Shown here: positions 27,644 through 46,076 of the stretch, piece by piece | Numbering within the stretch: position 1 is the first letter of the stretch | Layout of the letters: every line of letters begins with the position of its first letter | Source: an uncultured Candidatus Saccharibacteria bacterium | Lineage (GTDB): Bacteria; Patescibacteriota; Minisyncoccia; Phycocordibacterales; UBA6899 | Assembly: GCA_964515375.1 (NCBI GenBank) | Contig: CAZERF010000002.1 | Location: forward strand, 93,164-157,163 | Direction: 5' to 3' | DNA: 64,000 bases | Program-made: the position numbers and the translations under genes | Notes under the pieces: generated by a model | What the model was told of the DNA's origin: nothing | Database searches by the model: none | What the model saw: only the letters and a program-made list of their open reading frames with translations

Positions 27644-27722
27644 CCCGACAGAGAGACCCAAGAGGCGACCGAGAAGGGTCGCTTTTTGGTAAAGAAAGTT
27701 CTAGACTCAGTAGGTCAAAAAC

Positions 27723-28703
27723 ATGAATATCGAGGAAAGAAAAATTCTCAAAGCACTCACTGATGATAGGAGGGGGTTACTGTCCCCAGCAGATTTCGTA
27801 AACGGAATTGCGCAACACGATCGGCGGGCAGTAGAAAACCTTGTCACGGGTGGCTATGTCGAGGAGGTACCACAAGATGTTAATGGAGGTCATCGGGGAA
27901 CATATTCTATAAATTTTTATAGAGCAACAGAAAAGGGTCGAAATGTCTTTTCTCCATGGAGACAAAAAGTTTGGTTTAATCTTAAGACGGAAACCTCACT
28001 TTGGGTAGGAATCTCCTCGATCATGATTGGAGTTCTTTCAATACTTATTTCTAGCGCCGTGGCTTTTGGTGTTCCTTGGTATCAAAATGTATCAAATGAA
28101 CAAAAAGAAATTGAGGCAATTTATAAAAATCTCATTACGAATGAGGATATTCTCATATCGAACTCAAATAATGCCAGATTTCTTTTAACTGCAACAAGTG
28201 TCACTGCATTGCCGGAGTCATACCTGGAAGATGAGATCAAAGGTGATATTGGAAAAATACTTCAGGATAAGTTTGGTTTAATTCAATACAGATTTTTCGT
28301 TTATTACTTGCAGCAGATTGAACTTTTCAACTTGGAAATAGAAGAAATGAGGAACGCACTCGTTGTCGGGGGTTCAACATCAACAGCATATCTAAGTGCC
28401 CAAAAGGCGTATCTTTCAACTGTAGACGAAATAAGCAAGGAGGGGATGGATGCAAGGTTTAGTCACATAAGAGATGTTGAATGCCTTACACATTTATTTG
28501 AGCGCAATTTTGAGTATTTATCTATTGATCCGCGCGGCAAAATAGAAAAATGTTCAAATGAATCCCTTAATCGAATTTATTATAATTTTGGCTTTCTCGA
28601 GGCGGCAACACCAAGGTGGATGCTACCAGCATACAGAGACGCGCTAAATGAAAGAAGGGCGGGTTTCGGTGACACAATAATTAACATCGCCGGAGGTTAT
28701 TAG
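27723..28703 (+). CDS. Hypothetical membrane protein with an N-terminal winged-helix-like domain. AT-rich island cargo.
   Basis: ILKALTDDRRGLLSPADFVNGIAQHDRRAVENLVTGGYVEEV (wHTH-like), then the TM helix LWVGISSIMIGVLSILISSAVAFGV, then a ~200-aa C-terminal domain. Confidence 0.55.
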   Translation: MNIEERKILKALTDDRRGLLSPADFVNGIAQHDRRAVENLVTGGYVEEVPQDVNGGHRGTYSINFYRATEKGRNVFSPWRQKVWFNLKTETSLWVGISSIMIGVLSILISSAVAFGVPWYQNVSNEQKEIEAIYKNLITNEDILISNSNNARFLLTATSVTALPESYLEDEIKGDIGKILQDKFGLIQYRFFVYYLQQIELFNLEIEEMRNALVVGGSTSTAYLSAQKAYLSTVDEISKEGMDARFSHIRDVECLTHLFERNFEYLSIDPRGKIEKCSNESLNRIYYNFGFLEAATPRWMLPAYRDALNERRAGFGDTIINIAGGY

Positions 28704-28711
28704 CTACTTTC

Positions 28712-29815
28712 ATGCCTCGCTTACATAAAGTAATTTCATGGCCAAGACGCAAGTTCATTGCTTTCGTCCTCCGAAAAAGAATCGGAAAAAATAAGTGGTC
28801 TGCTCACTTGATATTTGGCTTGCTCAGCATTTTAGATTTACTTGAATTTTTGTATATAAATACACAGGACACGGGAAATTACGACCACTATATTCCAAAA
28901 TTTCTTCTTCGCCGATTTCGAATTTCCGAAAAAGGCGCACACAGTAATTCACTGTTTACCTACACACTTAAATCAAAACTTGTAGAAAGGAAAAGCATCG
29001 ACGACGTTGCGGGGGAAATTGATTTTGACGTCTCAAAAGCTAGCGGCATTCCAAGTGACTTTGTAAACAAAAAAATATTTGCTGAATTTCTTGAGCCGAT
29101 AGCATCAAGAATAATAAAGCATATAAACACTGGAAATAATGATTTAACATATCTTGAGGCTAACACCCTTGCTGTTTATATGGGCCATCAAATCACCCGA
29201 GTGCCAGCATTCAGATCGTTGCTTCTAAAAATTTTCTCGATAGGAATAAGTGATGGGCGGATACTCTATTCTGAATTTGGAGATAAGAAAGCACTCCGCG
29301 AAAAAATCGCCTTCAATTCTATTCTAATTACTTATGATCAGATTTTACGCACCAAACCACCCATTAAAGTCGATGGAGGTAAGCCGCAAGCGATAATGAT
29401 TTCTCTGCTAATTGCGCCTATTATTTCGGAAAAAATATACCGAAATAATAGTATGCATGTTATCGATATTCCTCAGGATAGTGGCAAGGAGTTTGTCATT
29501 TCAGACAACCCAGTAGTATTTATTGATTTCGAAAGAGCGACAGTTCTTCCGTTTGTTCCTTGGTGGGAAATAGGAACCCGCGATTTTTTAATAGCAATGC
29601 CAGTCTCAAGGAACAAGGCAATCATATATAGCAGAGTTAGTAGAAAACCGACAGAAACCGAACAGAACTCAATTGCCGAATTAATAAACTTTGCGCAATA
29701 TGCCTGTTCGAGAAAAGAGGTCTATTCTAACAACGAGAAAACGATATTGCTCCACCTAAATAAATACAAAACAGAGCTCGAAAAATTTCGGTTAATGTTT
29801 AGTTCTGAAGACTGA
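28712..29815 (+). CDS. DUF4238-like protein (candidate single-gene anti-phage / abortive-infection-type protein)
   Basis: The N-terminal motif NYDHYIPKFLLRRF resembles the DUF4238 HYxPQFYLRxF signature. AT-rich. Lies within the island. Confidence 0.5.
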   Translation: MPRLHKVISWPRRKFIAFVLRKRIGKNKWSAHLIFGLLSILDLLEFLYINTQDTGNYDHYIPKFLLRRFRISEKGAHSNSLFTYTLKSKLVERKSIDDVAGEIDFDVSKASGIPSDFVNKKIFAEFLEPIASRIIKHINTGNNDLTYLEANTLAVYMGHQITRVPAFRSLLLKIFSIGISDGRILYSEFGDKKALREKIAFNSILITYDQILRTKPPIKVDGGKPQAIMISLLIAPIISEKIYRNNSMHVIDIPQDSGKEFVISDNPVVFIDFERATVLPFVPWWEIGTRDFLIAMPVSRNKAIIYSRVSRKPTETEQNSIAELINFAQYACSRKEVYSNNEKTILLHLNKYKTELEKFRLMFSSED

Positions 29816-30025
29816 TTTTCTTGTCTTTGAGCACTGTCTTGTTTTTTCATGCACCCAGGAAGCCATCGCTTCTCGAGCGTCATTCCTTTTTTGAGCATGT
29901 ACCCGCCATACGTGTGTACACATTACCAGAGGGGCTTGCAATATATAGATATATGTGTGATTATAGAATCACTTTTATTAACACCGTTTCTTTATTGGAG
30001 GAAGGGAGTAGCATTGAGATTACTT

Positions 30026-32593
30026 ATGGAAACCAAACTTTTTACGACTAAGTTCGTGCGCATATTTTTTATATTAATTAGTGGTGTTTTACTCTCCTCC
30101 CAGACAGCGCTTGCTGCCGTCAGTTATAGCCAAACGGTGACACTCCAGCCCGGATGGAATATCGTTTCAACCCCACGCATTCTTGAGTCGCATAACTTCT
30201 CCATGCCAGAGACGTCTACAAATCTCAGTGTGTTCATGCTGGACGCATCGGATCCAAGTGGGTGGGCACCAATGTCTGGTGAGTTTGCGCCACTCTACGG
30301 ATATTTCATCAATAACAAGACCGCAACATCGCAGACGCTCACCTTTAATTTCAAGGCAAGCACAACCCCGAACGAGCGACTGTTCGATCGGTCATTTGCT
30401 ACTTCCGGCTGGTACTCAATTGGCGTTGCAAATCCCACTTACGCAGATCGCCAAGGTGAGGCGAACGTAGACGAGAACAATCCCTCCCAAGTATTTGATT
30501 CTGTTATTGCTTCGACAGATTTAGTCGTGGACTTTACCGATGCAGACTCGGTATTTAGCCCTGCGAGTGTTGCACTTGCTGATCCTTGGGGAGCTGCGAT
30601 TGCCACTGACGTGAACACCCTTGCTGATATTCGTGACACCAAGGGTTATGCGATCTATATAAATACTTCCGGATCACATTACATTGGATTTCAGAACGAG
30701 AGTGACGATGGTGGCACGGGTTCGGTCCCAACATATACGCCAGGCACACTAAGCATCACCAAGGCAGCAGATTCTCCTTCAGGAAATGTTATCCAGAATG
30801 GCTCAGGGGTAACACTTGGAAAATTCACATTCCAGGCGCAAGGAGAGAGACTGAAGGTTGAAAACCTCAAAGTTGCGCTAACCTCATCCGACACATCTTG
30901 GGGGAGTATTCGCAACGGCGCACTGTTTGCGAATGGTGTACAGGTAGGATCGACGAACAATATTCTTACCGCAACAGGAACGCAGTTCAATCTTGGTAGC
31001 TCCCTCATCATTGATGCTGGTCAAAGTGTCACCATCGAAGTACGCGGTGATATTTATGACAATGATGGCACTAATGATTCTTCTTCCGGAGACACCATAA
31101 AAGTCCAGTTGCTTGCCGGAACATCCAATGTCTATCGACTTACAACACTTGATTATATTTCAAGCGAGAGTAAATCTGCCAACATCGTGACAGTAGCAGA
31201 AGCGACACTTGCCCTTGCGAAATATGCGAGCTATGCAAACCAGACCATCATTGTTCCACAAACCGCATTTAAGATCGGCGAATACCGCCTTACTGCCGGA
31301 GCAGACGAGGGGGTAAATCTCGATACAATCACGCTCGCACTTGGGGGGTCGGCGACAGTTACACACCTCACCAATCTTTACGTGGTGTATGGCTCAAAGA
31401 CCTCGACCGTAAAGGCAACAGGAGCAACATCTCAGCAGTGGTCCATCAATGAGGCACTGTCGGCGAATGGCACGATGAGCATTGCGGTCTATGCAGATAT
31501 GAGCGGAAGCATTTTAAGTGCCTCGACTACGATAACCACACTGACTCTTTCGGGTACCGGACAAGGTTCTGGTAGCCCAGTCACATCGCCCGCTGTTACT
31601 GGACAAACGATCACTGCTGGCGAAGGCGTGCTCACTGGAACAGTGGATTCCTCGACCCCCATTTCTGCACTCCTTGTGGGCAACTCAATGCCAAAGGTAG
31701 CATCATTTAAATTTACCGCATCAAATGATTCTTTCACGATTACCGAACTCGCAGTAACAGCGAAAAGCGTAGCTGATGCGAGTGCAGTTACTGAGCTAGT
31801 GTTCAAAGACGGAGCGACAGAGATCAGACGTGTTTCTTACAATGGAGCTGTTGCCACTGCCACTGGTCTTAGTGTCGTGGCACAGTTCAATGCGACTAAG
31901 GTTATTGATGTGTATGCGAATCTCGGTTCTATCGGCACAGGATTTGTGGACACAGGTGCCAATGTGGGAATTACACTCACGAGTTTCAAGGCGCAAAATT
32001 CAAACGGCGTAAACACGACTCACTCAGTTAGTCTTGCAAGCAACGATTTCTACGCACACAAGACAAAACCAACACTCACAAACGTTGCGCTTCCGACCTC
32101 CGTACTATCTTCGGGCACAGTGACGATTGCAAAGGTAAACGTTACAGCAGACGCAGGAGGTACACTCGCGTGGAGGAAAATAGTATGGAATGTCGCCACA
32201 TCTTCTCCTGGAACGTTTACCGTCGGTTCTCCTGCAGTCTACGATGCAGCAAATGAGTCAACACCGCTTGCCAATGTCACCACGTCGATTGATCCGAGCA
32301 CTGGTGTTATTACCGTTACCTCAACAGTCGACCAAGAGGTGAGTGGTTCAAAGACCTATGTGCTCAAGGCAACTATTGGCGGATCGGTTCAGACTGGTGC
32401 ATCTGTTTCTACGAGCATTGCAGGAGGAGTCACATCACACAGTGTGCCAACCACGTATGCAGGGGCAGCATCGAACTCGTCCTTTGTGTGGTCCGATGAA
32501 TCAGTTGTGGGACACAGTGATACAACCACTGACTGGATGGATAACTATCTCGTGAAAAATCTTCCAACAGATTCACAGACACTCACAAAATAA
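30026..32593 (+). CDS. Large secreted Thr/Ser/Gly-rich beta-repeat surface protein (adhesin or S-layer-like)
   Basis: Signal peptide METKLFTTKFVRIFFILISGVLLSSQTALAAV. 855 aa of low-complexity repeats. The start was moved to the ATG at 30026. Confidence 0.65.
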   Translation: METKLFTTKFVRIFFILISGVLLSSQTALAAVSYSQTVTLQPGWNIVSTPRILESHNFSMPETSTNLSVFMLDASDPSGWAPMSGEFAPLYGYFINNKTATSQTLTFNFKASTTPNERLFDRSFATSGWYSIGVANPTYADRQGEANVDENNPSQVFDSVIASTDLVVDFTDADSVFSPASVALADPWGAAIATDVNTLADIRDTKGYAIYINTSGSHYIGFQNESDDGGTGSVPTYTPGTLSITKAADSPSGNVIQNGSGVTLGKFTFQAQGERLKVENLKVALTSSDTSWGSIRNGALFANGVQVGSTNNILTATGTQFNLGSSLIIDAGQSVTIEVRGDIYDNDGTNDSSSGDTIKVQLLAGTSNVYRLTTLDYISSESKSANIVTVAEATLALAKYASYANQTIIVPQTAFKIGEYRLTAGADEGVNLDTITLALGGSATVTHLTNLYVVYGSKTSTVKATGATSQQWSINEALSANGTMSIAVYADMSGSILSASTTITTLTLSGTGQGSGSPVTSPAVTGQTITAGEGVLTGTVDSSTPISALLVGNSMPKVASFKFTASNDSFTITELAVTAKSVADASAVTELVFKDGATEIRRVSYNGAVATATGLSVVAQFNATKVIDVYANLGSIGTGFVDTGANVGITLTSFKAQNSNGVNTTHSVSLASNDFYAHKTKPTLTNVALPTSVLSSGTVTIAKVNVTADAGGTLAWRKIVWNVATSSPGTFTVGSPAVYDAANESTPLANVTTSIDPSTGVITVTSTVDQEVSGSKTYVLKATIGGSVQTGASVSTSIAGGVTSHSVPTTYAGAASNSSFVWSDESVVGHSDTTTDWMDNYLVKNLPTDSQTLTK

Positions 32594-32594
32594 T

Positions 32595-33590
32595 ATGAAA
32601 AAACTCATCCTCTCTATACTTCTCATCCTTCCGCTCAGTGCATTTGCCGCACTGCCAGCATTTCCGATGTCGTTTTATGGGACTGCAACGATTAATGGCA
32701 CCCCTGCACCAGTTGGGACAATCGTTCGTGCATATTACGGAACGACACTTGCGGGGCAGGTGAGTATGAGCGAGGTCGGCATCTATGGTTACGATAATCC
32801 CACCAAACAACAGCTTCTTATCGGCGAGGGTGCCACAGCGATCCGTTTTACTGTTCAATCAAGCACTATAAATAGTGGGACTGAAACTGAAGGAACAGCA
32901 TCGCAATCACACCCCTCGTTTGTATCAGGCGATGTAGTCTCAAAAAATCTCACCTTTACATGGAGTGCTCCTGTTCCAGCACCTACGCCTGCACCATCAG
33001 GTGGCGGGGGTGGAGGTGGTGGCGGAGGGGGAGGAGGGGGCGGTGGAGGTGGATCCGCAACACTGTACGGCTGTATGGATAAAAAAGCGGTAAATTATAG
33101 CCCCATTGCTACTGTCGATAATAAAGCATGCGTTTACCCATCTGGGGTGACTGCAAGTACGACAGCACCGACACCTGCTCCAGTCACGCAGACAAGCACA
33201 GTAAAACCCGTCGGAGAGGTTGCGGGTGCATCGACCTTTATGTTCACTCGTAATCTCAATGTGGGTTCAACGGGAAACGACGTAACCGAATTACAGAAGC
33301 GACTAACTGCGGAAGGATACTATGTTGGTCCAATTACTGGGTACTTCGGTCCGCTCACTGGTGCTGGGGTGAAGAAGTATCAATCAGCACACGGACTAGA
33401 GCAGGTGGGGAACGTTGGGCCAAAGACTCGATCAATACTGAATCAGGGTGGGAGTGTGCTTGGAGCAAGCACTGTATCAACATCGGTCACGGTATTAACA
33501 CCGGAGGCTCGTGCAACGCTCATCAAGCAATTGCTCGCAATGATCATTGAGCTTCAGAAGCAACTTGCAGCACTCAAGGCGCAACAATAG
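32595..33590 (+). CDS. Secreted protein with an 18-residue poly-Gly linker and a C-terminal peptidoglycan-binding domain (PG_binding_1)
   Basis: Signal peptide MKKLILSILLILPLSAFA. The stretch FTRNLNVGSTGNDVTELQKRLTAEGYYVGPITGYFGPLTGAGVKKYQ is a canonical PGBD1. Start lies 2 nt after the previous stop. Confidence 0.7.
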   Translation: MKKLILSILLILPLSAFAALPAFPMSFYGTATINGTPAPVGTIVRAYYGTTLAGQVSMSEVGIYGYDNPTKQQLLIGEGATAIRFTVQSSTINSGTETEGTASQSHPSFVSGDVVSKNLTFTWSAPVPAPTPAPSGGGGGGGGGGGGGGGGGGSATLYGCMDKKAVNYSPIATVDNKACVYPSGVTASTTAPTPAPVTQTSTVKPVGEVAGASTFMFTRNLNVGSTGNDVTELQKRLTAEGYYVGPITGYFGPLTGAGVKKYQSAHGLEQVGNVGPKTRSILNQGGSVLGASTVSTSVTVLTPEARATLIKQLLAMIIELQKQLAALKAQQ

Positions 33591-33605
33591 AGGAGTGGTT
33601 TGCCA

Positions 33606-34925
33606 TCATTTTTCTAACGTTATCGTTTTATCCTTCAGAACGATTCGGTTTTTTAGACACCCGAGGAGTTCACGCTTCTCAATCATCGTGCCTTCTTTGA
33701 GCATATATTTTGCGTAGTTGCGCACGTCGACATCGAGGGCTTTATCGTTCTCCTTTGCTCCAAGTAGCTTCGCGCGGATTTTGTTGTATCGCGCAACCTC
33801 TCTTTCGATAATGTGGCGTGTTCCGAGTTCATCGATATCAATCTTGTCGAAAATCTCGTCGATTTGCTTGAGTAATTCCTCTTCTCGAATGAATGGGTTC
33901 TTACAGAAGTGATCTTTGTTCCTTGTGCAGTTGTAGTAGATGTAACTCCGCACTGTGCCGTCTTTGAGATTCTTGTCTTTTTCCTGTGCCGTAATTCCTG
34001 ATCCGCAGTACCCACATAGCATGAGATTGGTGAAGGTGAATTCCTGATACTGCTTTTTCGAACGGAGTTCCTCGGTGAGCTTGAGTTGAACTTTCTCGAA
34101 CAATTCCTTCGAAACAAGTGCTTCATGTTGTCCTTTGTACCAGTTTCCACTTCCGCCGGGGTATTCGAATGTCCCTGAGTATAGCGGTTGCCGCAAGATA
34201 CGATAGATAGTACTGAGCGTTAGCGATTTCCTTCCTTTTCGTACGCTCGCAAATCTGCCTTCTTTTTCCATCCAGTGATAGACCTTCCGTCCGCTCCATC
34301 GTTCGTTGCCGACCTTTTCGAACATCTGTTTGATAATCGGCCCGCGCAGGGGGTCAACGAGAATGTATCCTGCACGCCCGGGCATGCGGTCGTTGATATA
34401 TCCGGTCGGTGCGACACACGGCCACAGTCCCATCTCAACTTTTGCCCGAAGCCCGCGCTTCACATTCACGCCCTTGTTATCATTCTCGAGTTTTGCCTGT
34501 GAACACAAAATCATGAGAAGAAATTTCTCGCTCGGGCTGTTGGTGAACTTTTGACCGAACGTTCGTACTTCAATCAGTCTATGCTCGTCCATTAGGTCAA
34601 CAATTGCTCCTAGGTCACCCGCATTTCTACTTAAGCGATCTGGGTGCCACGCAAGGATGGCATTGAATTTTCCTGCCTTGAGGTCGTTAATCAACTCATT
34701 GAAGACGGGTCGTTGCCCGGTACTTTTTGCCGAGTGTGACTCACGCTTGATGTCGACCACATCGAGCCCCTCCCGTTGTGCCAACTGTAGCATCTCTTTG
34801 GCTTGGGAATCGATTGAAAGGGCTTGCTGTTCGTCCGATTCCGACGATTTTCTAGCGTATAAACAGTATCTAATCTTTGGCTCGTCAGAGCCCTCTAGCG
34901 GGTTCGAATTTTTCATACACACCAA
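33606..34925 (-). CDS. Large serine recombinase (resolvase-type catalytic domain + recombinase domain + Zn-ribbon)
   Basis: IRYCLYARKSSESDEQQALSIDSQ carries the catalytic Ser. C-terminal CGYCGS...C...C Zn-ribbon. 439 aa. Confidence 0.85.
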   Translation of the reverse strand: MVCMKNSNPLEGSDEPKIRYCLYARKSSESDEQQALSIDSQAKEMLQLAQREGLDVVDIKRESHSAKSTGQRPVFNELINDLKAGKFNAILAWHPDRLSRNAGDLGAIVDLMDEHRLIEVRTFGQKFTNSPSEKFLLMILCSQAKLENDNKGVNVKRGLRAKVEMGLWPCVAPTGYINDRMPGRAGYILVDPLRGPIIKQMFEKVGNERWSGRKVYHWMEKEGRFASVRKGRKSLTLSTIYRILRQPLYSGTFEYPGGSGNWYKGQHEALVSKELFEKVQLKLTEELRSKKQYQEFTFTNLMLCGYCGSGITAQEKDKNLKDGTVRSYIYYNCTRNKDHFCKNPFIREEELLKQIDEIFDKIDIDELGTRHIIEREVARYNKIRAKLLGAKENDKALDVDVRNYAKYMLKEGTMIEKRELLGCLKNRIVLKDKTITLEK

Positions 34926-35065
34926 TGAATGACGCTACCCTCCCAGGGAGTCCAGGAATGGCAGATAGTACGCAATAAGGGTAAATATAGTCAAAAATAT
35001 CAATCCTTGCGTAAGGATTGACAATCCTTACATAGGAGAATAGTATTTACGCATAAACAAAAACC

Positions 35066-35284
35066 ATGAAACAAGAAGAAAAGCGCGAAAGATTTAAGAG
35101 GCTCGGGACGCAACGTACAAACGCGGTGCTCCAGAAGATCAAAGTGCTCAGCAATTGTGCGAATCGGAGCGCGTATGAGTATACGGAAGAGGAGGTGAAT
35201 AAGATTTTTTCAGAGATTGAACGGCGGGTACGCGAGGCGAAGGCGAAATTCCATTTCCCGAAGACGAAAGAATTTAAACTATAA
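35066..35284 (+). CDS. Small basic hypothetical protein, first gene of the GHKL/Type III operon
   Basis: 72 aa, Lys/Arg/Glu-rich helical protein. Lies 4 nt upstream of the GHKL ATPase gene. Confidence 0.45.
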   Translation: MKQEEKRERFKRLGTQRTNAVLQKIKVLSNCANRSAYEYTEEEVNKIFSEIERRVREAKAKFHFPKTKEFKL

Positions 35285-35288
35285 AAAT

Positions 35289-37043
35289 ATGTCCATCCAT
35301 CCCAAAATTTCCCCACGCATCATCAACTCCATTGCGACACTCTATAACGATGTGAACCGCATCTTCATGGAGTACATTGATAATGCAATTGATAGCGCAG
35401 ACCAGAATTGGTTTGATCGTCCCCGCAATGCATACTCCCGTCCTGTTGAGGTCACTGTCCATATCAAGGGGCACAGTCATAAAGACGCAGAAGTCGTCAT
35501 TACTGACAACTGCTTTGGCATCACAAATTTCACCAAAGTCGTAGAGAGTATCGGGGACTCAGACAAGAAAGCACAAGGATTCACTAATGGACAATTTGGT
35601 TTTGGTATCTATTCCTTTATGGCGGCGTGCTCGGATCTTGAGCTCACTTCAAAAGAAGAGGGAAAGAGCGCACTTCGTCTCGTGCTTAACCGTGAACAGT
35701 TTGATAAGAAGTCAGTTGAGGAGGTTAGCATCCCCAGCCCCAAAGAAACCAAGCATTTTCCTCATGATTCGGGCACCCAAATCCGGCTTCATGGGTTTGA
35801 TAAGGACGCATGGAAAAATGTTGTTGCCAAAACGCTCAAGGAGGAGATAGAAAAACACTTTGAGCTCATTCTTCGTCGCGGGAATCTCACGGTGAAAATT
35901 ATTGATGAAACGTCGGAGCAAGAAATACTCTGTGAAGCCTTTGATTATGACAATTTTGATGGGGAGGTATACGAGGACCACATTGAACACTTTGATCTTG
36001 AGAGCGGTCGTCGCCACAAGGTGACGGAAAAGTGGGAATTGAAAGACCCGGTGCATATATTCCTGAAAATGACGAAGGGTCAGGTACTCAACAAGCCCCC
36101 AGTGTTCGTCTCAAAAGGAAGACGAATTTGTGAGATCAAGGATGTGAAGTCATTCAAGTCAGCACACAAGAGCGACATCTGGGGACACGCAAATGTCACG
36201 GGGTACATTGACCTCAAGGATCTGCTCGGGCCAACAATTGCACGCAACGACTTCAAGAGCGACAAAAACTCACGCGCTCTTTTTGCGGAACTTGTAGAGC
36301 TCGAGGATCTGATTCTTGATTATGTGAGACGTGCAAATGAGCATACTGACGAAAAACATTATCAGCAGCTTGAAGACGCGCTCAATCGCGCCCTCTCAAA
36401 GCTTGCGCGCGTTGATGCAATGAATTTCCGTACCTCTTTTCTCAAGGGTGGCGAGAAGAATCTATCTGGTGGATCTGCCGGGACGGAGTATGTAGAGGGC
36501 GTTGGGGCGCATGATTTTGGTGATGGTGAAATTGAGAATCCAGGAGAAGGAGTTGGGGAGGACGAGGGTGAGGGACTCGGGACTCACGAGGGTGGCGACG
36601 ATCTTCCGGGCGGGGCAACCTCAGGCGAACAAGCAAAGAACGAAGAACTTTTTGCTGACAGTGAATTCAAGGGCAAAGAGCGCAAGAAGAGTGGTTTCAA
36701 TATTCACATTTCTGATGCAGAGCCCCAGGTGGATGCCGAGACGGGGAAGCAACTGCGCTCACTCCTTTCGGGTGAACAAATTGTGATCTTTAAGAAGCAC
36801 GCAGATTTCCAGGCTCGCTTGAGCCACACTCGCCAAGGTGGATCAAAGATCACCGACAGACTCCTTGCGTACATTGCGGGGGAGATCACCGTGCACTACA
36901 AAGATGAGTTCTACAACAAGCGCCAGAATGGTCAGCCAGAATACAGCAAGAATATGTTCGTGAGCATGGCAGAGTTCATTTATCAACTTGAGGATGCCCT
37001 TTCCGCGCTTTCCGGGAAGAACCTCTCAGAACTCTCCTCATGA
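35289..37043 (+). CDS. GHKL-superfamily ATPase, MORC/MutL-like (HATPase_c_3-like), with an acidic low-complexity C-terminal region
   Basis: N-terminal Bergerat-fold motifs: YIDNAIDSA (N-box), DNCFGI (G1-like) and GQFGFGIYSF (G2). 584 aa. Overlaps the next gene by ATGA. Confidence 0.65.
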   Translation: MSIHPKISPRIINSIATLYNDVNRIFMEYIDNAIDSADQNWFDRPRNAYSRPVEVTVHIKGHSHKDAEVVITDNCFGITNFTKVVESIGDSDKKAQGFTNGQFGFGIYSFMAACSDLELTSKEEGKSALRLVLNREQFDKKSVEEVSIPSPKETKHFPHDSGTQIRLHGFDKDAWKNVVAKTLKEEIEKHFELILRRGNLTVKIIDETSEQEILCEAFDYDNFDGEVYEDHIEHFDLESGRRHKVTEKWELKDPVHIFLKMTKGQVLNKPPVFVSKGRRICEIKDVKSFKSAHKSDIWGHANVTGYIDLKDLLGPTIARNDFKSDKNSRALFAELVELEDLILDYVRRANEHTDEKHYQQLEDALNRALSKLARVDAMNFRTSFLKGGEKNLSGGSAGTEYVEGVGAHDFGDGEIENPGEGVGEDEGEGLGTHEGGDDLPGGATSGEQAKNEELFADSEFKGKERKKSGFNIHISDAEPQVDAETGKQLRSLLSGEQIVIFKKHADFQARLSHTRQGGSKITDRLLAYIAGEITVHYKDEFYNKRQNGQPEYSKNMFVSMAEFIYQLEDALSALSGKNLSELSS

Positions 37044-37906
37044 GCACTCAAGTCCTCATAGAAGCCATCACGCCTTCATATAATGCCTACCAGAAGGGTC
37101 AGGGTACCCTCACGCCAACCGAGCTCATTATGCTCATGTGGGACATTGGCGCAGCGATTGAGAGGCATGTGAATGAACACAAAATCCCCCCACATGCGCT
37201 GTATCGCCAGGTATATGGCAAGAGTGAGGGTACGCAAAACATCAAACAGCGCAGTTATATTGCGCGTGAGTTTTTAAGTAGAAGCTATCGCGTGAAGCGC
37301 ATATTCAAGACGAAGAGTGAGATCAAAAAGCAACTTCCGAAACTTTCCGCGATCAATCACTTTCGTGAGGCGATGCCATTTTTTGATAATCCAAAGTATG
37401 TACTTGGGGCAAAAGAAAAGCAGGAGCTCCTTCGTGTGATCAATGGTCCGCTCTCCAACAAAGAGAAAGAGAACTACATCCAGAAACTTCAATCAAAGAA
37501 AATCGGGATCAAGAATCCGCGTACACAAAATCTGAATCTCCTTGATGAGGATAAGTTGGTGTTTGTGAAGCTCTATAACGATGTGTTCAACGCACTGAAG
37601 CTTGAGAACTATGACAAGGCAAAGAAAGCCCTCTCTCTCCCGTCACCAAAATTTCTTGCGATACTTTCACTCAACTGTGGAGCTATTTCTGCCGATGGGC
37701 TCATGATGGAAAAATTTGAACCGCCGAAGGATCTCAGTGCGAAGTGGAAGGCGTTTGTCGGGGTGATACAAAAGCTCATCAAAGATGAAAACCCGAAAGA
37801 ACGTAGACGCTTCCGGAGACTCATCCCACCAGAGCGCATGATCCGACTCTCCGAAATGCTCTACGCATTGACCACTCCGGAGAAATATAAGAGCTTCAAG
37901 ATATAA
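37040..37906 (+). CDS. Hypothetical all-alpha protein co-transcribed between the GHKL ATPase and Mod
   Basis: 288 aa with no recognisable domain. Translationally coupled upstream; 16-nt gap to mod. Confidence 0.5.
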   Translation: MSTQVLIEAITPSYNAYQKGQGTLTPTELIMLMWDIGAAIERHVNEHKIPPHALYRQVYGKSEGTQNIKQRSYIAREFLSRSYRVKRIFKTKSEIKKQLPKLSAINHFREAMPFFDNPKYVLGAKEKQELLRVINGPLSNKEKENYIQKLQSKKIGIKNPRTQNLNLLDEDKLVFVKLYNDVFNALKLENYDKAKKALSLPSPKFLAILSLNCGAISADGLMMEKFEPPKDLSAKWKAFVGVIQKLIKDENPKERRRFRRLIPPERMIRLSEMLYALTTPEKYKSFKI

Positions 37907-37922
37907 TCACAAGATAAACAGC

Positions 37923-39818
37923 ATGAACAAATTTGACCCCACATCACACAACATCACGGAGGAGCAGAGAGCCCAACTGAAGGAATCGTTTCCAGAAGCA
38001 TTTACTGAGCAGGGAATAGATTTTGAGTGTCTCAAGACACTTCTCGGGGAAACGGTTGAAACAGGACCCGAGCGCTATTCCTTCACCTGGCCAGGGAAGA
38101 CTGAGGCGATTCGTGCCGCACAAGCATCAAGTATGGGCACGCTCGTTCCAGACAAAGCATCGTCAGTGGATTGGGACACCACAGAGAATCTGTATCTTGA
38201 GGGAGACAACTTGGAGATTTTGAAGCTCCTTCAGAAGTCCTACGCCGGAAAAGTGAAGATGATCTATATTGACCCTCCATACAACACTGGAAAGGACTTT
38301 GTGTACCCCGACAAGTATGGTGAGGGCCTGAAGACATACCTGGAATATACGGGGCAAATAGATGGCGAGGGAAAGAAGCTGACGACAAACACCGAAACAG
38401 ACGGTCGCTACCACTCAAAGTGGCTTAACATGATGTACCCACGACTGATGCTCGCACGGAATCTGCTCAAGGATGATGGGGTGATCTTCGTCTCAATTGA
38501 TGATCATGAGGTCCACAATCTGCGGAAGATTATGGACGAGGTTTTTGGAGCAGAGAATTTTATAGCAGTATTTACATGGGTGCGCAAAAAGAAAGGTTCA
38601 TTCTTGTCTGACAAAACAAGAAAAATGACGGAATATATAGTCTGCTACCAAAAAAATATTTCTGAAAAATTGGAGTTTTATGGAGAGGATGCATACGCGG
38701 ACAAATGGCAGCCCATCGTGAAGCGTACAAATTCAGAAAAAGAACTATCAATCCCAGAAAATGTTGTTGAAACAACACTGGAAGATGGAGAATATGAGGG
38801 TGGATTCCGAGGCAACGAAGGAACCGGTATAAATTTTCAAAACAACTTTAAAGTTGAAGATGGTCTTGTAAAAAACAGGATTATCGTACGTGGAAACTTT
38901 GTTTGGACACAAGATTTTTTAGATCGCGAACTTGTTAGTGGCACCAGGATTTCTCTCTCAACAAAATTTGGTTTTAATGTCTTGAGGCACGATCAAGAAG
39001 AAAAAACAAAAACACCGTCAACCCTAATTAATAGTGACAATGATGTTGGAACGAATGAGGATGCCACCGCTGAGGTAATCAGCCTATTTGATGGAAAGAA
39101 AGTTTTTGATTATCCAAAACCCGTATCACTACTTTCTTATTTAGTGAAAATGGTTACTTCCGAAAATGATATTGTATTAGATTTCTTTTCCGGATCAGGA
39201 ACCACCGCACATGCGCTGATGGAAATAAATGCTAAAGATGGGGGAGGGAAAAAATTTATATTAACCCAGCTTCAGGAAACAGTACCTAACGATAGTGAAG
39301 CGCAAAAATCTGGATTCCAAAATATCTCAGAACTTGGACGCGAGAGAATCAAGCGCGCCGGAAAGAAAATTCGCGAGGAACTTGCCGAGAATATCACCAC
39401 AAGAGAAACCCCACTGGACACAGGATTTAAGGTATTTCGCCTTGCTCCAAGTACGTTCAATGTTTGGGATGTGAAAGGAGAAGATGATCTTCAAGTGAAA
39501 CTCGTTGACGCCACTTCCTTGATCAAGGGGGATGCAAAAGAGGAGGACATTCTCACTGAGCTCATTTTGAAGAGTGGCTACGGACTCACAGAGAAAGTTG
39601 AGCAGATCACACTCTCCGAGAAGAAGTTTTATTCGGTCGCAGGTGGGAAGCTCATTGTTTCGCTTGAGTCAGGACTTACGCTAGAGCATGTACGGGCAAT
39701 TGCCGAGAAGAAACCGGAACAGTTTGTTGCGCAGGAGCATGGCTTTGCAAGCAACGATGTGTTGACCAACACTGCGCAGATTATGAAAGATAAGGGAATT
39801 GATTTCCGCGTACTCTAG
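37923..39818 (+). CDS. mod: Type III restriction-modification methyltransferase (Mod), N6-adenine, beta class
   Basis: IYIDPPYNTG (motif IV, DPPY), then a central variable TRD, then VLDFFSGSGTTAHA (motif I FxGxG). 631 aa. Confidence 0.85.
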   Translation: MNKFDPTSHNITEEQRAQLKESFPEAFTEQGIDFECLKTLLGETVETGPERYSFTWPGKTEAIRAAQASSMGTLVPDKASSVDWDTTENLYLEGDNLEILKLLQKSYAGKVKMIYIDPPYNTGKDFVYPDKYGEGLKTYLEYTGQIDGEGKKLTTNTETDGRYHSKWLNMMYPRLMLARNLLKDDGVIFVSIDDHEVHNLRKIMDEVFGAENFIAVFTWVRKKKGSFLSDKTRKMTEYIVCYQKNISEKLEFYGEDAYADKWQPIVKRTNSEKELSIPENVVETTLEDGEYEGGFRGNEGTGINFQNNFKVEDGLVKNRIIVRGNFVWTQDFLDRELVSGTRISLSTKFGFNVLRHDQEEKTKTPSTLINSDNDVGTNEDATAEVISLFDGKKVFDYPKPVSLLSYLVKMVTSENDIVLDFFSGSGTTAHALMEINAKDGGGKKFILTQLQETVPNDSEAQKSGFQNISELGRERIKRAGKKIREELAENITTRETPLDTGFKVFRLAPSTFNVWDVKGEDDLQVKLVDATSLIKGDAKEEDILTELILKSGYGLTEKVEQITLSEKKFYSVAGGKLIVSLESGLTLEHVRAIAEKKPEQFVAQEHGFASNDVLTNTAQIMKDKGIDFRVL

Positions 39819-39820
39819 TC

Positions 39821-42766
39821 ATGAAGCTGCAATTTGATCCAAACCAGGAGTACCAGATGGATGCGGTTCGTGCATCGGTAGATCTCTTTGAGGGGCTACC
39901 GATTGAGGAGGACAGTTTTTCCGTTTCTGTGGCAAAAGAAAATTTGCCAGGGATGTTTGAGGCGCAAACTGAAGATGTGCTCGCATTTGGAAACCACACC
40001 ACTCTCCCCGACGATGAATTATTGAAGAATCTTCAGTCTGTGCAAGAACGAAATGGGATTGAGGTCACTGAGACACTTCAGAAAACAATGGGGTATCCGC
40101 AATTCTCTGTTGAGATGGAAACTGGGACAGGAAAGACCTATGTGTATCTACGCACGATCCACGAGCTCCATGCGAAGTATGGATACAGCAAGTTTGTGAT
40201 CGTGGTTCCCGGTAAGGCAATTCGCGAGGGAACACTCAAGAATTTGGAGATCACGGGAGATCACTTCCAGACTCTCTATGGAAACACGCCATTTTCGTAT
40301 GCAGTGTATGACTCAAAAAACATGAGTACTGTGCGTGACTTTGCTGTATCGCGCGGGCTCTCAATTTTGATCATCAACATTGAGGCATTTCGTAAGGATT
40401 TTGATGATGAGAATATGGATCCCGAGAGAGGTGTGCTTTTTCATCGTCCGAGCGAGAAGCTCTCCGGTCGTTCACCGCGCGAATTCTTGCAAGCAGTCCA
40501 TCCGATTGTGATTATTGATGAACCGCAGAGTGTAGACAATACTCCGATAGCAAAGAAGTCCATCTCACTCCTTAATCCTTTATTCACCCTCCGCTATTCT
40601 GCAACGCACCGTAATCCGTACAATCTCATTTATCGCCTAGATCCCATTCGTGCGTATGAGATGCGACTCGTGAAGAAGGTCGCTGTGGCCGAAGTTCTTG
40701 GATCACAAGAATCGGGGGCAGGTGCGTATATAAAACTCATTTCAGTTACCAATGATGGAGGAATTAAGGCACAGATTGAGATTGATGAGGATAACGAAAG
40801 CGGTCCGAAGCGAAAGAAGATCAAAGTGAAGGGTGGTGACGACTTGTTTGTGAAATCCAAACATAGAGATGCTTATCAGAATGGTTTTCTGGTCGGCGAG
40901 ATTGGCGCCGAACAAGGGAAGGAGTTTATTTCTTTTGAACCAAGTGGAATCACGCTCCATATTGGCGAGGCACTCGGTGGTGACGATGAGGCTATTAAGC
41001 GCCTCCAGATCAGGAAAACGATTGAAGAACATTTTGAAAAGGAACTAGAGCTTGAAGGGCGCGGAATCAAAGTGCTCTCGCTTTTCTTTCTGGATCGTGT
41101 AGCAAACTATCGTCTCTATCCCGAAGAAGGGGAAGCTGAGAAGGGTCAGTACGCCAAGTGGTTTGAGGAAGAGTATGAGCGTCTGCGTCAGACTGAGAAA
41201 TATAAGACACTGAAGCAGCCACCAGTTGAAAAGGTGCATGATGGTTATTTTGCTGAAGACAAGAGCGGCAAACTCAAAGATTCTCGCGGTGAGGGCGATA
41301 CCGCCGACGATGAATCTGCTTACAACAAGATCATGAAAGAGAAGGAGCGCCTGCTCTCTTTTGAGGAGCCCCTCAAGTTCATTTTCTCTCACTCAGCATT
41401 GCGTGAAGGATGGGACAATCCGAATGTGTTTCAGATTTGCACACTCAATCAGGCACATAACGCGATCAAAAAGCGCCAGGAAATTGGGCGTGGGATGCGC
41501 CTCCCCGTGGATCAGAGTGGGGTCCGCGTATTTGATGAGTCAATTAACAAACTCGTTGTTGTTGCGAATGAGAGTTATAAGGATTTTGCACGAAAACTCC
41601 AGACTGAATATGAAGAAGATTGTGGGGTAACATTCGGAAAGATTACTGAGAAGACATTTGTGGGACTCACATATGAAAAAGATGGCGCAGAGGTGTTGCT
41701 AAATGAAGCAACGATTGCGACAATCATCCAAACACTTCGGACATTAGGCATGATTGATGAGAATGGCAAACTCACGGATGCTTTTGATCCTACACAAGTA
41801 GGATTCACCCTGGGGCTCATGGGAGACTTGAAGGAGATTGAACTGGAGATCATTGATCGGATCAAAGAATACCAACTTGAGCGCCATATTGTGCGTCACC
41901 AAGCGAAAGGGCGCGTTAAGATCAACAAAGAAGTATTCTTGAGCCCCGATTTTGCTGAGTTGTGGAATCGTATTAAGGCAAGAACTACCTATGCGGTGAA
42001 GTTTTCCGACGACCTACTGATAACGACAATTTCGGATCGCCTGCGTGCAATGCCCGCGATCACGCTCCCTAAGGTGCAGTATGTGAAGGCTGAGTTCTCG
42101 CTGGATGATCGTGGGGTGACAACACGCGAGGTGCGAAATAGAACCGAGGAGGTGAAGCAGGACAATGCGCAGCTTCCGGACATCCTCTCGTATCTCCAAC
42201 GAGCAACGCATCTTCGGAGGAAGACGCTCGTAGATGTACTTACGCGCTCGGGGAGGCTCGCTGATTTCGCGAAAAACCCTCAAAAATTCATGGATGTGGT
42301 GGCCGAGACAATCCGCGCTGAGCTTCGCCGTCTTTCTGTTGAGGGTATTCAGTATGAGCGTGTGGCAGGCGAGGAGTATGAAATGACCCTTTTTGAGGAT
42401 CACGAGTTTTCTGCATATTTGAGCGATCTTCTCCCGTCTAAGAAGTCGGTGTACGAACGCGTTTCCTATGACTCTGATATTGAGCGTCGCTTCGCCTTGG
42501 AGTTAGAGAAGAAGGATCAGGTCAAACTCTATGTCAAACTTCCATCATGGTTTACCGTTGAGACTCCGGTGGGCAAATACAATCCCGATTGGGCGATAGT
42601 GAAGCACGGAGACGAGAAGGTGTACTTGGTCCGAGAGACGAAAGGTTCACTTGAAGCAAGCGCGCTCCGAATTTCAGAAGATCAGAAGATCAAGTGCGGC
42701 AAGAAGCACTTCGCCTCCATCGGCATGGACAACTTTGAGGTGGTAAAAGATGCGAGTGAGATATAG
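39821..42766 (+). CDS. res: Type III restriction enzyme Res subunit (SF2 helicase + C-terminal PD-(D/E)xK nuclease)
   Basis: METGTGKTYVYLRTI (Walker A), VIIDEPQ (motif II), QxxGRGxR-like region HNAIKKRQEIGRGMRL. 981 aa. Starts 3 nt after the mod stop. Confidence 0.85.
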   Translation: MKLQFDPNQEYQMDAVRASVDLFEGLPIEEDSFSVSVAKENLPGMFEAQTEDVLAFGNHTTLPDDELLKNLQSVQERNGIEVTETLQKTMGYPQFSVEMETGTGKTYVYLRTIHELHAKYGYSKFVIVVPGKAIREGTLKNLEITGDHFQTLYGNTPFSYAVYDSKNMSTVRDFAVSRGLSILIINIEAFRKDFDDENMDPERGVLFHRPSEKLSGRSPREFLQAVHPIVIIDEPQSVDNTPIAKKSISLLNPLFTLRYSATHRNPYNLIYRLDPIRAYEMRLVKKVAVAEVLGSQESGAGAYIKLISVTNDGGIKAQIEIDEDNESGPKRKKIKVKGGDDLFVKSKHRDAYQNGFLVGEIGAEQGKEFISFEPSGITLHIGEALGGDDEAIKRLQIRKTIEEHFEKELELEGRGIKVLSLFFLDRVANYRLYPEEGEAEKGQYAKWFEEEYERLRQTEKYKTLKQPPVEKVHDGYFAEDKSGKLKDSRGEGDTADDESAYNKIMKEKERLLSFEEPLKFIFSHSALREGWDNPNVFQICTLNQAHNAIKKRQEIGRGMRLPVDQSGVRVFDESINKLVVVANESYKDFARKLQTEYEEDCGVTFGKITEKTFVGLTYEKDGAEVLLNEATIATIIQTLRTLGMIDENGKLTDAFDPTQVGFTLGLMGDLKEIELEIIDRIKEYQLERHIVRHQAKGRVKINKEVFLSPDFAELWNRIKARTTYAVKFSDDLLITTISDRLRAMPAITLPKVQYVKAEFSLDDRGVTTREVRNRTEEVKQDNAQLPDILSYLQRATHLRRKTLVDVLTRSGRLADFAKNPQKFMDVVAETIRAELRRLSVEGIQYERVAGEEYEMTLFEDHEFSAYLSDLLPSKKSVYERVSYDSDIERRFALELEKKDQVKLYVKLPSWFTVETPVGKYNPDWAIVKHGDEKVYLVRETKGSLEASALRISEDQKIKCGKKHFASIGMDNFEVVKDASEI

Positions 42767-42782
42767 CACAACAACAAACACC

Positions 42783-43316
42783 CTACGTGGGGTGTTTGTT
42801 GTTCTCGCCACTCTTTTGTTTCGCCTCTTCACATTTTCTGATTTCCTCTTCCAACTTAAATACACCTGCGAGGCCGGCGTTGTGGAGCGCTCTTGATATC
42901 TCCTCCAACATATAGTCTGGAAGACGATTCTCCAGCGGGTTACTCTCATCAGTGTATCTCCATCGAGAATCGGCATAGGTGCCATGGTGATGCTTGAGCC
43001 AGAAGACAATTGCAGTCATTGCGCCATCTTTGATTTTCTTAATGAGTTGAGACTCGGCCATATCGTTGACGAGAGTTCGTCCTTCGCTGATCGCGACCGC
43101 GCTTTCCTCGGCGAAGTGCTTATCCGAATTCATCCACTTGTAGTATGTTGCACGGGCGACCCCAGCTCGCTCGCAAGCAAGCTGGATGATCGAACTCTTG
43201 CGCAGGTGCTCAAGTACTTCCTGCTTCATTTGTGCGGTGCGCTTCTCTGTCGCACCACTTGGTTGGGACACTACTTTCTTCGGTCCCCGCTTTGGTGTGT
43301 GCGGTGACCGGGTCAT
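42783..43316 (-). CDS. HTH DNA-binding protein (terminase-small-subunit / transposase-OrfA-like HTH)
   Basis: IIQLACERAGVARATYYKWMNSDKHFAE is a typical phage/IS HTH_23-type motif. Confidence 0.55.
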   Translation of the reverse strand: MTRSPHTPKRGPKKVVSQPSGATEKRTAQMKQEVLEHLRKSSIIQLACERAGVARATYYKWMNSDKHFAEESAVAISEGRTLVNDMAESQLIKKIKDGAMTAIVFWLKHHHGTYADSRWRYTDESNPLENRLPDYMLEEISRALHNAGLAGVFKLEEEIRKCEEAKQKSGENNKHPT

Positions 43317-43325
43317 ACGAGCGAA

Positions 43326-44666: not shown

Positions 44667-44940
44667 TAATCAATTTGGTTTCGATTTGGGGTTGAAGCGC
44701 AAACGCTATTTGGTGAGAAACAAAAAACTCCGCGACCGCGAATGACATTCTGTGCGAGCAATGCATTCGTTACTACTTGGGAGTTCTACTTAGTGAAAAA
44801 CCTATTTGGGATACTGTTTGGTTATCTTTATGGTATGCCTTTGACGCTTTTTCGCAATGGATAGTTATCCACTATTACGCTATTCGCACCGTTGTCGGTT
44901 GGAGTATGTGGAACAAGTATGTTGGCGGTACAATATAGTG

Positions 44941-45823: not shown

Positions 45824-45844
45824 TGCCTACAGGGATTCGAAAGA
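45824..45844 (-). repeat. Inverted copy of the tRNA-His 3'-end core (inverted att-core fragment)
   Basis: Reverse complement ctttcgaatccctgtaggcac has 19 nt matching tRNA-His 27622-27640. It sits 214 bp before attR. Confidence 0.7.
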
Positions 45845-46057: not shown

Positions 46058-46076
46058 CGAATCCCTGTAGGCACCC
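46058..46076 (+). repeat. attR: 19-bp direct repeat of the tRNA-His 3' end
   Basis: cgaatccctgtaggcaccc is identical to 27625-27643. Confidence 0.8.

Follow-up and report, generated by a model that had tools for sequence, protein, structure and literature searches.

A conserved motif beside tRNA-His genes as the probable attachment arm of serially inserted defense islands in Patescibacteria

A conserved motif of about 60 nucleotides begins at the 3′ end of the tRNA-His(GTG) gene in the 64,000-nucleotide stretch of DNA analyzed here (the window), and it recurs twice more within the low-GC island that follows this gene. Our preferred reading, to which we assign a probability of roughly 60%, is that the motif is the P′ arm of an integrating element at the tRNA-His 3′ end, that it also supplies a replacement intrinsic terminator, and that motif copies 2 and 3 are fossil junctions left by former insertions. 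The evidence for this comes from the repeats themselves, from the restriction of the motif to one locus in one clade, from a graded set of locus states, from the association of a large serine recombinase (LSR) with tRNA genes, from the position of a GACC feature, and from a conservation of the motif that is anomalous when compared with its tRNA. Serial insertion as the source of the copies is well supported.

The process that we envision can be described as follows. Islands of a family found in CPR/Patescibacteria would insert at the 3′ terminus of a tRNA gene to create a junction consisting of tRNA, motif, and cargo. The tRNA end would stay intact and therefore would be usable again as a target. 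Each newcomer would then insert between the tRNA and the previous arm, and the old junction, made of the tRNA-3′-like P arm of the newer element plus the older motif, would be pushed downstream to decay there. Copy 1 would represent the live junction (tRNA arm, crossover, element arm), whereas copies 2 and 3 would be two clear fossil junctions that, together with weaker scars, delimit four tandem islets. The halves of the site would be the T-loop sequence GGTTCGA on the tRNA side and a mirrored GACC in the motif.

Motif copies in the window

An earlier note on this DNA had placed three direct copies of the motif at positions 27645-27706, 47927-47989, and 48625-48680, with the first directly after tRNA-His, and these coordinates were confirmed (Table 1). 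A 20-mer from copy 1 that is allowed up to three mismatches finds only these three sites, and it finds nothing in 100 dinucleotide shuffles (0/100). Copies 2 and 3, which were grouped with copy 1 in repeat family D2, are 77% and 66% identical to it over 44 nucleotides. The similarity does not collapse upon proper alignment and is retained in HMM searches, in which nhmmer returned E-values of 4.5e-32, 1.4e-24, and 1.5e-21 for the three copies (1e-31, 3.2e-24, and 3.2e-21 with a larger locus set). Furthermore, the conserved block extends beyond the limits that were first noted, since in relatives it spans about 75 nucleotides and ends at GTTCTAGACnnnGTAGGTC (27645-27717 in the window).

The pseudo-sites resembling tRNA 3′ ends that had been reported before copies 2 and 3 are likewise present, and they occupy positions 47904-47927 and ~48613-48626. 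Copy 2 is preceded by GGTTCGAATCCC (47904-47915), which is a 12-nucleotide exact match to the T-arm of tRNA-His, and copy 3 is preceded by GCAGGTACCCC, for which the tRNA-His counterpart is GTAGGCACCCC. The description of these sequences as degenerate copies of the tRNA-His core stands as far as their likeness to a tRNA 3′ end is concerned, but their derivation from tRNA-His is less secure because they may instead be element P arms that mimic such an end. Copy 2 retains a spacing of 48 nucleotides from GGTTC to GACC and has lost the hairpin that is formed by copy 1. Copy 3 is the most degenerate of the three; it has also lost the hairpin, and its 3′ part overlaps the start of the next gene.

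Weaker traces of related sequence are also evident. A tentative fourth scar matches the tRNA 3′ end at 15 of 18 positions, and an equal score is reached in 7 of 300 shuffles. A second repeat type (family D15), present in two copies, is related to the GACCGAGAAG part of the motif, and its local alignment score of 49 is reached by none of 300 shuffles. The exact sequence GACCGAGAAG is found in the window only in copy 1 and at 50677-50686, within the second copy of this repeat type, which is the probable distal end of the island array.

Other tRNA genes in the window carry 3′-end duplicates of their own, located 150-185 nucleotides downstream. These involve tRNA-Val-tac (15298-15357/15483-15542), tRNA-Leu-cag (20252-20295/20404-20447), and tRNA-Leu-gag (18479-18497/18641-18659). 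Two of the duplicates are exact and one is 97% identical, the enclosed inserts are ~100-145 nucleotides in length, and inspection by eye reveals that an inverted degenerate T-arm is also present in the Leu inserts. These arrangements resemble very small or collapsed scars left by the integration of a different element family.

Composition of the island array

The GC content of the window drops from ~0.54 to 0.38-0.50 across the interval from 27.7 to ~51 kb and returns to ~0.52-0.56 past 51 kb. Between 27.7 and 50.7 kb lie genes for a type III restriction-modification (R-M) system, PDC-S41, Fic, and NUDIX proteins, along with phage remnants. Because motif-related sequences form the boundaries, we consider this region to be a 23-kb array of four islets (Table 1). 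The NUDIX protein of islet 2 is 56% identical to the product of the last cargo gene in the insert of a related locus (L004, described below), and both genes are located just before a pseudo unit. The helicase encoded by islet 4 matches Pfam PF09848 (3e-80) and PADLOC PDC-S41 (1e-286).

Several additional features of the region were observed. The 326- and 914-aa open reading frames (ORFs) that match no family are both situated between the proposed att arm and the LSR gene. A clear gene for Hcp, the type VI secretion tube protein (PF05638, 4e-45), is present at the edge of the array (50874-51410, minus strand) in this apparently CPR genome. A second low-GC patch (0.39-0.41) at window positions 4000-6000, directly downstream of tRNA-Ser(tga) (4217-4306), may be another island; the trailer of this tRNA lacks the GACC feature discussed below.

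Table 1. Features of the tRNA-His locus and the adjoining island array (window coordinates)
Feature	Position	Strand	Basis or content
tRNA-His(GTG)	27571-27646 (ARAGORN), 27572-27643 (Rfam)	+	RF00005, 62 bits
Motif copy 1, canonical unit	27645..27720	+	Repeat search, nhmmer, fold
Copy 1, proposed element-side half-site	27646-27670	+	CGACAGAGAGACCCAAGAGGCGACC
Copy 1, terminator hairpin	27658-27670 paired with 27677-27689	+	CCAAGAGGCGACC/GGTCGCTTTTTGG
Copy 1, T-arm-like box	27698-27716	+	GTTCTAGACTCAGTAGGTC
Islet 1, ~18 kb, low GC	27723..45492		Pfam, PADLOC, PHROGs
Islet 1, 326-aa ORF	27723-28703		Directly after copy 1; no Pfam/PADLOC/PHROGs match
Islet 1, DUF4238 gene	Between 326-aa and 914-aa ORFs		Pfam/PADLOC/PHROGs
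Islet 1, 914-aa ORF	29849-32593		No Pfam/PADLOC/PHROGs match
Islet 1, peptidoglycan-binding protein	Between 914-aa ORF and LSR		
Islet 1, LSR, candidate integrase	33606..34925	-	Resolvase + Recombinase + Zn_ribbon_recom; C-terminus faces tRNA-His
Islet 1, HATPase_c_3 (GHKL-type ATPase)	Between LSR and 288-aa ORF		
Islet 1, 288-aa ORF	37040-37906		No Pfam/PADLOC/PHROGs match
Islet 1, type III R-M Mod + Res	37923-42766		Complete pair
Islet 1, TerS-like (small-terminase-like) HTH	42783-43316	-	
Islet 1, ParB-N6/N4 methylase	43326-44666	-	
Islet 1, TPR protein	After ParB-methylase gene		
Weak fourth scar, tentative	45528..45570 (core 45531-45549)	+	GGTTCGAGTCCGAGTAGGGGGGGCTGATGAAGAG; pseudo tRNA 3′ end, then motif start
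Second repeat type, copy 1	45677..45737	+	Starts CCGACCGGATAGCC; repeat family D15; related to GACCGAGAAG part of motif
Islet 2	45757..47896	+	125-aa ORF, Fic/DOC + HTH, NUDIX; Pfam
Motif copy 2	47888..47989	+	GGTTCATGACCGGATT, pseudo tRNA 3′ end 47904-47927, motif 47928-47989
Islet 3	48109..48585	+	Single 158-aa ORF; no Pfam/PADLOC/PHROGs match
Motif copy 3	48606..48680	+	GCAGGTACCCC (acceptor-like 3′ strand), then CTGATGCAGAGACCTAAGAGGCAACC
Islet 4	48663..50654	+	Schlafen-group-3/DUF2075-type helicase; full-length match to candidate defense protein PDC-S41
Second repeat type, copy 2	50668..50727	+	Contains exact GACCGAGAAG

Distribution of the motif and states of the locus

A degenerate pattern was derived from the columns that are invariant in the three copies and was used to scan one genome per species (596 Gb) as well as JGI metagenomes. 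This yielded 10 matches in the species-representative genomes and 11 in the metagenomes, and a scan of viral contigs for the motif yielded none. The true matches are found only in contigs of Candidatus Lloydbacteria (CPR/Parcubacteria) or unclassified relatives, and they always follow a tRNA-His gene or a pseudo 3′ end. The remaining matches are isolated, have no nearby tRNA, attain only weak model scores, and are read as chance. All true-match loci share the genes upstream of tRNA-His, and the tRNA order at locus L020 (Arg, Val, Leu, Leu, His) is that of the window. Thus, these tRNA-His loci are orthologous, and the genome that contains the window is Lloydbacteria-like.

One concern was that the motif might be a generic REP-like or terminator repeat, or perhaps a small RNA gene, that has no connection to mobile DNA. 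Such a repeat could account for the stable hairpin of copy 1, and for this alone. There are just three copies in 64 kb, all within one island, and public matches are confined to the tRNA-His loci of one clade. Furthermore, the motif has no Rfam match, copies 2 and 3 fold no better than shuffled sequences, and there is no covariation. Because the motif is not dispersed and is found only at tRNA-His genes or pseudo 3′ ends, this concern is removed as a refutation, and we regard the explanation as very improbable.

The orthologous loci differ in the number of units that follow the tRNA. In L003 and L010, tRNA-His is followed directly by the motif (one unit). Locus L020 carries tRNA-His, a variant trailer, ~190 nucleotides of intervening sequence, a pseudo 3′ end, and then the canonical motif. 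In L006, the tRNA-His gene is of a different kind, and a variant trailer and 1.4 kb of cargo (a third ORF and what by eye is a HicAB-like pair) separate it from the pseudo 3′ end and motif. L004 has the same different tRNA-His as L006, a variant trailer, and 2.5 kb of cargo, followed by two stacked units, of which the first is a pseudo 3′ end with an L020-type trailer and the second is a pseudo 3′ end with the canonical motif. The flank downstream of this stack is the downstream flank of L003, such that L003 and L004 share flanks without and with an insert of 2.8 kb. These states form a nested series, with each new stretch of DNA placed beside the tRNA and earlier units shifted outward. The proposal that tandem or nested integration of related elements gave rise to the copies therefore finds support in the gradation from L003 and L010 through L020 and L006 to L004 and the window.

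A second case of presence/absence polymorphism at one site comes from an unrelated CPR population. Contigs L028 and L029 share 99.98% identity as far as a breakpoint located at the 3′ terminus of a tRNA-like gene, and L029 carries a second element with its own LSR exactly between the tRNA 3′ terminus and the trailer of the older element. The tRNA-like gene that serves as the insertion target (L028, ~12170-12520, minus strand) has its 5′ and 3′ halves ~270-300 nucleotides apart, with a clear T-arm and acceptor. ARAGORN makes no call on it, probably owing to an intron or intervening sequence.

An intact tRNA at one end and a partial 3′ copy at the other are observed in the window, L004, L006, and L020. 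Among the loci compared, no fully empty tRNA-His site (one without the motif) was found, and look-ups of flanking genes by exact protein identity gave no strain-level empty sites, as every contig ends either at the tRNA or within the island. These contig breaks at the tRNA-His locus in same-strain assemblies are among the observations that would be expected if the islands were exchanged by homologous recombination after DNA uptake, with tRNA-His plus the motif and other blocks serving as anchors and with no current site-specific recombination. It would also be in keeping with this explanation that each genome has different cargo directly behind a nearly identical motif, and that islets 2-4 have no recombinase. 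However, such exchange would replace units rather than stack them, and it leaves unexplained the pseudo 3′ ends before each copy, the fixed spacing from GGTTC to GACC in the pseudo units, and the precise breakpoint at the tRNA 3′ terminus that distinguishes L028 from L029. We therefore consider homologous exchange to be quite unlikely, and serial site-specific insertion remains our preferred reading.

Certain details of these loci are not predicted by a simple crossover at the 3′ terminus, namely the tRNA-His 5′ pseudo-halves in L004 and L010 and the replaced tRNA-His in L004. The tRNA-His genes of L004 (3194-3266) and L006 (3178-3250) are identical to each other, and both strands of their acceptor stems differ from the type found in L003, L010, and L020. 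A remnant of an L003-type tRNA-His gene is retained upstream in L004, and it seems that the incoming segment replaced the whole tRNA-His gene in L004 and L006. In L010 (1811-2034, minus strand), two to three degenerate tRNA-His 5′ halves, two from an HMM search and the third by eye, are stacked at a spacing of ~75 nucleotides immediately upstream of the intact gene. A leader follows each of them, and two of these leaders are nearly identical. L004 has one such degenerate half (3117-3160). All of these halves share an anticodon region that is 5-7 nucleotides shorter than that of the real tRNA, and thus they may be copies of each other.

A large serine recombinase and its tRNA neighbors

The LSR of islet 1 is the sole recombinase found in the window array. 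Its domains PF00239 (7e-22), PF07508 (2e-12), and PF13408 (2e-9) occur in this order, which is the LSR architecture, and the protein also matches the phrog_95 integrase family. The catalytic residues R25-K26-S27 are invariant in 41 homologues, the enzyme is intact, and translation probably starts at the ATG at 34916. The closest solved structures are those of SPbeta SprA/YokA and the TP901-1 integrase. A conserved block upstream of the gene ends at ~34958. Beyond it, on the LSR promoter side toward the next gene, the nested perfect inverted repeats TCAATCCTT GCGT AAGGATTGA and a third half-site (35000-35031) look like an operator.

Two facts do not sit easily with a role for this enzyme: its gene lies 6 kb from tRNA-His, with four genes and no scar in between, and no recombinase was found in islets 2-4. 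The L004 and L006 inserts likewise have none. No Pfam match to a tyrosine integrase (PF00589) was obtained for the main island ORFs of the window or for the ORFs tested in L003, L004, and L020. The LSR is 91% identical to a copy in L003 that has the same place and orientation downstream of tRNA-His, whereas the core proteins flanking tRNA-His in the window and L003 are only ~58-67% identical, which suggests recent spread of the LSR. The LSR of islet 1 appears to be the most likely recombinase behind the insertions, and an enzyme of this kind rather than a tyrosine integrase would have carried them out.

Homologues of the LSR are abundant in Patescibacteria, where more than 8000 matches were found. 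The best 120 of these are ~58-66% identical to the window protein, except for three at 86-93%. The homologues recur beside genes for a ParB-methylase, a small protein, and the large terminase (TerL), which form a backbone in L027-L030, and a degraded form of this ParB-MTase/small protein/TerL/LSR backbone is retained in the window. Wherever a locus has a tRNA beyond the LSR stop codon, the nearest one is on the opposite strand and is thus convergent with the LSR gene (21 of 76 viral-contig loci have a downstream tRNA, to which L022, L023, L026, L027, the window, and L003 are added). Minimal gaps between the LSR and the tRNA are 117-146 nucleotides, and at least 10 tRNA identities are represented, including Asp, Ser, Gln, Glu, Asn, Trp, Arg, Gly, and His. 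In the L022 and L023 elements, the tRNA end or trailer is not repeated at the distal end, as is expected for serine recombinases.

Some contigs carry two LSR homologues 10-35 kb apart (L045/L082, L052/L053, L065/L068, L067/L073, L078/L084, L104/L105, and L029), often with restriction-modification, Fic, TOTE, or SMODS genes in between. Given that many contigs have this arrangement, stacked LSR-associated defense islands seem to be common in CPR genomes. Contig L044, considered as a free phage genome with an attP site, proved to be another chromosomal defense-island stretch, and several IMG/VR "viral" contigs with paired LSRs likewise look like islands rather than phages.

A GACC feature and the proposed attachment site

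If the motif is an att arm, some part of it might recur beside other tRNAs that neighbor LSR genes, and this is observed for the tetranucleotide GACC. The comparison used other tRNAs in the same loci as controls, and the Lloydbacteria His loci were left out because including them would be circular. GACC occurs within the first 60 nucleotides of the trailer for 15 of 22 LSR-proximal tRNAs versus 1 of 26 controls (Fisher p = 2e-6), a statistic that draws on a small control set and on IMG/VR proviruses, for which the placement of boundaries may favor tRNAs. The feature is absent from the other LSR-proximal trailers (7/22). When GACC followed by C or G is considered, the counts are 14/22 and 0/26, respectively. 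GACC starts 17-23 nucleotides past the tRNA end, except in the two tRNA-Gly trailers, which have their first GACC at +10. In addition, CAGAGACCC is common to the His motif and the tRNA-Gly trailers beside LSR homologues.

Counted from the first base of the T-loop GGTTC to the last base of GACC, the distance is 47-49 nucleotides in 13 of 17 cases, and because of this spacing the two can be viewed as an imperfect inverted repeat centered on the tRNA 3′ terminus. In the window, the quasi-palindrome covers 27622-27670 (48-49 nucleotides) with its center at ~27646/27647 and the mirrored GACC at 27667-27670. The composite pattern was observed 48 times versus 13.9 expected in 2.4 Mb (both strands), and pseudo units carry it as well, among them window copy 2 (47904-47951) and those stacked in L004 and L020.

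Serine integrases are known to use quasi-palindromic sites of ~50 bp. By analogy, we infer that the LSR site is a quasi-palindrome of ~50 bp with the form GGTTC-N38-GACC that is centered on the tRNA 3′ end, with the crossover presumably occurring at the tRNA terminus. The segment of tRNA-His from the T-arm to the 3′ end (27622-27646) is proposed to be the chromosomal half (B arm) of the att site. Since no excised circle, empty attB, or attP was observed, both the crossover point and the enzyme are deduced from indirect evidence. The pseudo 3′ ends in L006 and L007 are 5 nucleotides longer than the real tRNA end, which hints at the difference in register between attP and attB that serine integrases show, although this excess is inconsistent across loci. 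The equal spacing of the half-sites is not obviously a good fit to the register difference between attB and attP of characterized LSRs.

It is tempting to extend this model to a CPR-wide LSR family that uses the tRNA 3′ terminus as its att site, with the universally conserved T-loop GGTTCGA and the mirrored GACC of the element as half-site determinants. We offer this extension tentatively, and rate its chances as somewhat below even. If true, it would explain the spread of the LSR family over at least 10 tRNA identities as well as the reusability of the site.

A terminator hairpin within a conserved arm

Copy 1 is predicted to form a hairpin of 13 bp with a U tract behind it (dG -25.5 kcal/mol, z -3.5), and its sequence features (GGCGACC-GAGAAG-GGTCGC, then TTTTT) are those of a Rho-independent terminator. 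A consensus terminator scanner makes no call on this copy because the T run falls inside the extended stem. Copies 2 and 3 lack the terminator features and fold no better than shuffles (z -0.17 and 0.14). The folding check that had been proposed for the motif thus gives a stable structure for copy 1 and none for the other two. The alternative that the motif is a tRNA-trailer or terminator module also holds for copy 1, where the arm contains the terminator hairpin of the tRNA, and it is compatible with the att-arm reading. We take the hairpin to be a terminator brought along by the arm, where it would terminate transcription. A terminator would be needed because insertion of the element moves the native downstream DNA away from the tRNA, and also because the LSR and tRNA genes converge.

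The hairpin exhibits no covariation, as the motif sequence is invariant, and Rfam searches of the motif at gathering or permissive thresholds (E up to 10) returned no family, with only the tRNA model being hit. A structured RNA and a degenerate second tRNA were both rejected as the identity of the trailer, given the lack of covariation and the failure of copies 2 and 3 to fold. In L007, in the variant trailer of L004, and in window copy 2, the GACCGAGAAG side is retained and its hairpin partner is replaced. Because this side is kept when its pairing partner is replaced, and because there is no covariation, the left part of the motif appears to be conserved as sequence, which fits a protein-binding arm.

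The conservation of the motif also exceeds that of the tRNA it adjoins. Among Lloydbacteria genomes, the canonical 60-nucleotide motif is 87-98% identical, whereas their tRNA-His genes are 80-86% identical to that of the window. Between L010 and the window, there is an abrupt shift from 84% identity in the tRNA to 97% just past it, and unrelated cargo lies beyond. This pattern and the recurrence of GACC beside other LSR-adjacent tRNA species agree with the original suggestion that the motif is an att arm.

These same data bear on the rival view that the motif has no role in recombination and is simply the trailer and terminator native to the tRNA-His gene of the host. In that case, T-loop crossovers by a tyrosine or other integrase that has since been lost would each have duplicated the 3′ part of the tRNA and carried the host trailer to the far end. 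Pseudo units that begin at the T-arm GGTTCGA are what a T-loop crossover would be expected to produce, and copy 1 does form a good terminator hairpin. In addition, the best-conserved motif is the most distal one, beside the conserved flank, in L004, L006, and L020, and other tRNAs in the window have 3′-end duplications of 19-60 nucleotides that are typical of classical att repeats. However, a host terminator should neither exceed its tRNA in conservation nor keep its 5′ arm once the hairpin can no longer form, and the pseudo 3′ ends have diverged from the tRNA to a far greater extent than the adjoining motif has diverged. Likewise, a GACC at a fixed offset that is shared with the trailers of LSR-adjacent Ser, Gln, Trp, Asp, and Gly tRNAs would be unexpected, and the tested island ORFs (window, L003, L004, and L020) have no Pfam match to a tyrosine integrase. 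On balance, a host trailer seems unlikely, and the interpretation of the motif as an arm delivered by the element accommodates these observations better.

Comparison with known systems

The arrangement resembles the tRNA-targeted tandem islands and prophages of the Islander/TIGER class in that insertion is at the 3′ end of a tRNA that is left intact and reusable, repeats derived from att sites flank the elements, successive elements pile up while older junctions decay, and defense and phage cargo has a GC content below that of the flanks. Williams, in 2002, is said to have described sublocation classes for integration at tRNA genes, and targeting of tRNAs is classically a property of tyrosine integrases, which counts against an LSR as the enzyme here. 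Tandem arrays targeted to tRNAs are common in mycobacterial prophages, and overlap with the tRNA has been described for Int-Y sites (PMC8092301). Unlike this class, the islands described here are associated with a serine recombinase, and no tyrosine integrase was found. Moreover, the repeat runs ~60-75 nucleotides past the tRNA and its tRNA-derived part is poorly conserved, whereas the classical repeat is an identical core inside the tRNA.

The protein itself is similar to known LSRs (SPbeta SprA, TP901-1, Bxb1, and phiC31) in its Resolvase, Recombinase, and zinc ribbon domains and in the location of its gene at the edge of phage-like modules. The proposed site is also similar, being ~50 bp in length and quasi-palindromic with a central crossover and having no long identical core between junctions. 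Characterized LSRs mostly target protein-coding genes or intergenic sites. The present system would differ from them in that it pairs with the 3′ ends of tRNAs that span many identities, in that the element supplies a terminator, and in the proposed use of the T-loop as a half-site. A literature search for integration at tRNA genes in CPR bacteria or by serine recombinases found nothing specific, which is weak evidence of absence.

There is also a superficial likeness to integron cassette arrays, with co-directional cargo units, a recurring structured site of ~60-120 nucleotides, and a recombinase gene within the array. Unlike integrons, the array has no tyrosine IntI and no attI/attC signature, and its units are anchored on a tRNA gene. 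An integron-like cassette array was rejected because there is no IntI and because the sites are not maintained but become more degenerate with distance.

Stacked att scars at a tRNA gene represent ordinary island accretion, and therefore the motif itself is explained. Such accretion is well known. What appears to set the present case apart is that the recombinase is of the serine type, that the att arm is external to the tRNA, and that the universal T-loop serves as a half-site.

Implications

If the LSR family does target tRNA 3′ ends across Patescibacteria, this would constitute a distinct route to a landing site that is safe, conserved, and reusable. Recombinases of this type would be compact integrases with predictable sites of ~50 bp on a universal tRNA feature, and perhaps would be useful in genome engineering. 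Knowledge of the site would also help to delimit mobile DNA in CPR metagenome bins. Furthermore, the LSR family would account for much of the flexible gene content, including defense genes, of these reduced genomes. It would follow that ultra-small genomes can build stacked arrays of defense islands at tRNA genes without tyrosine integrases.
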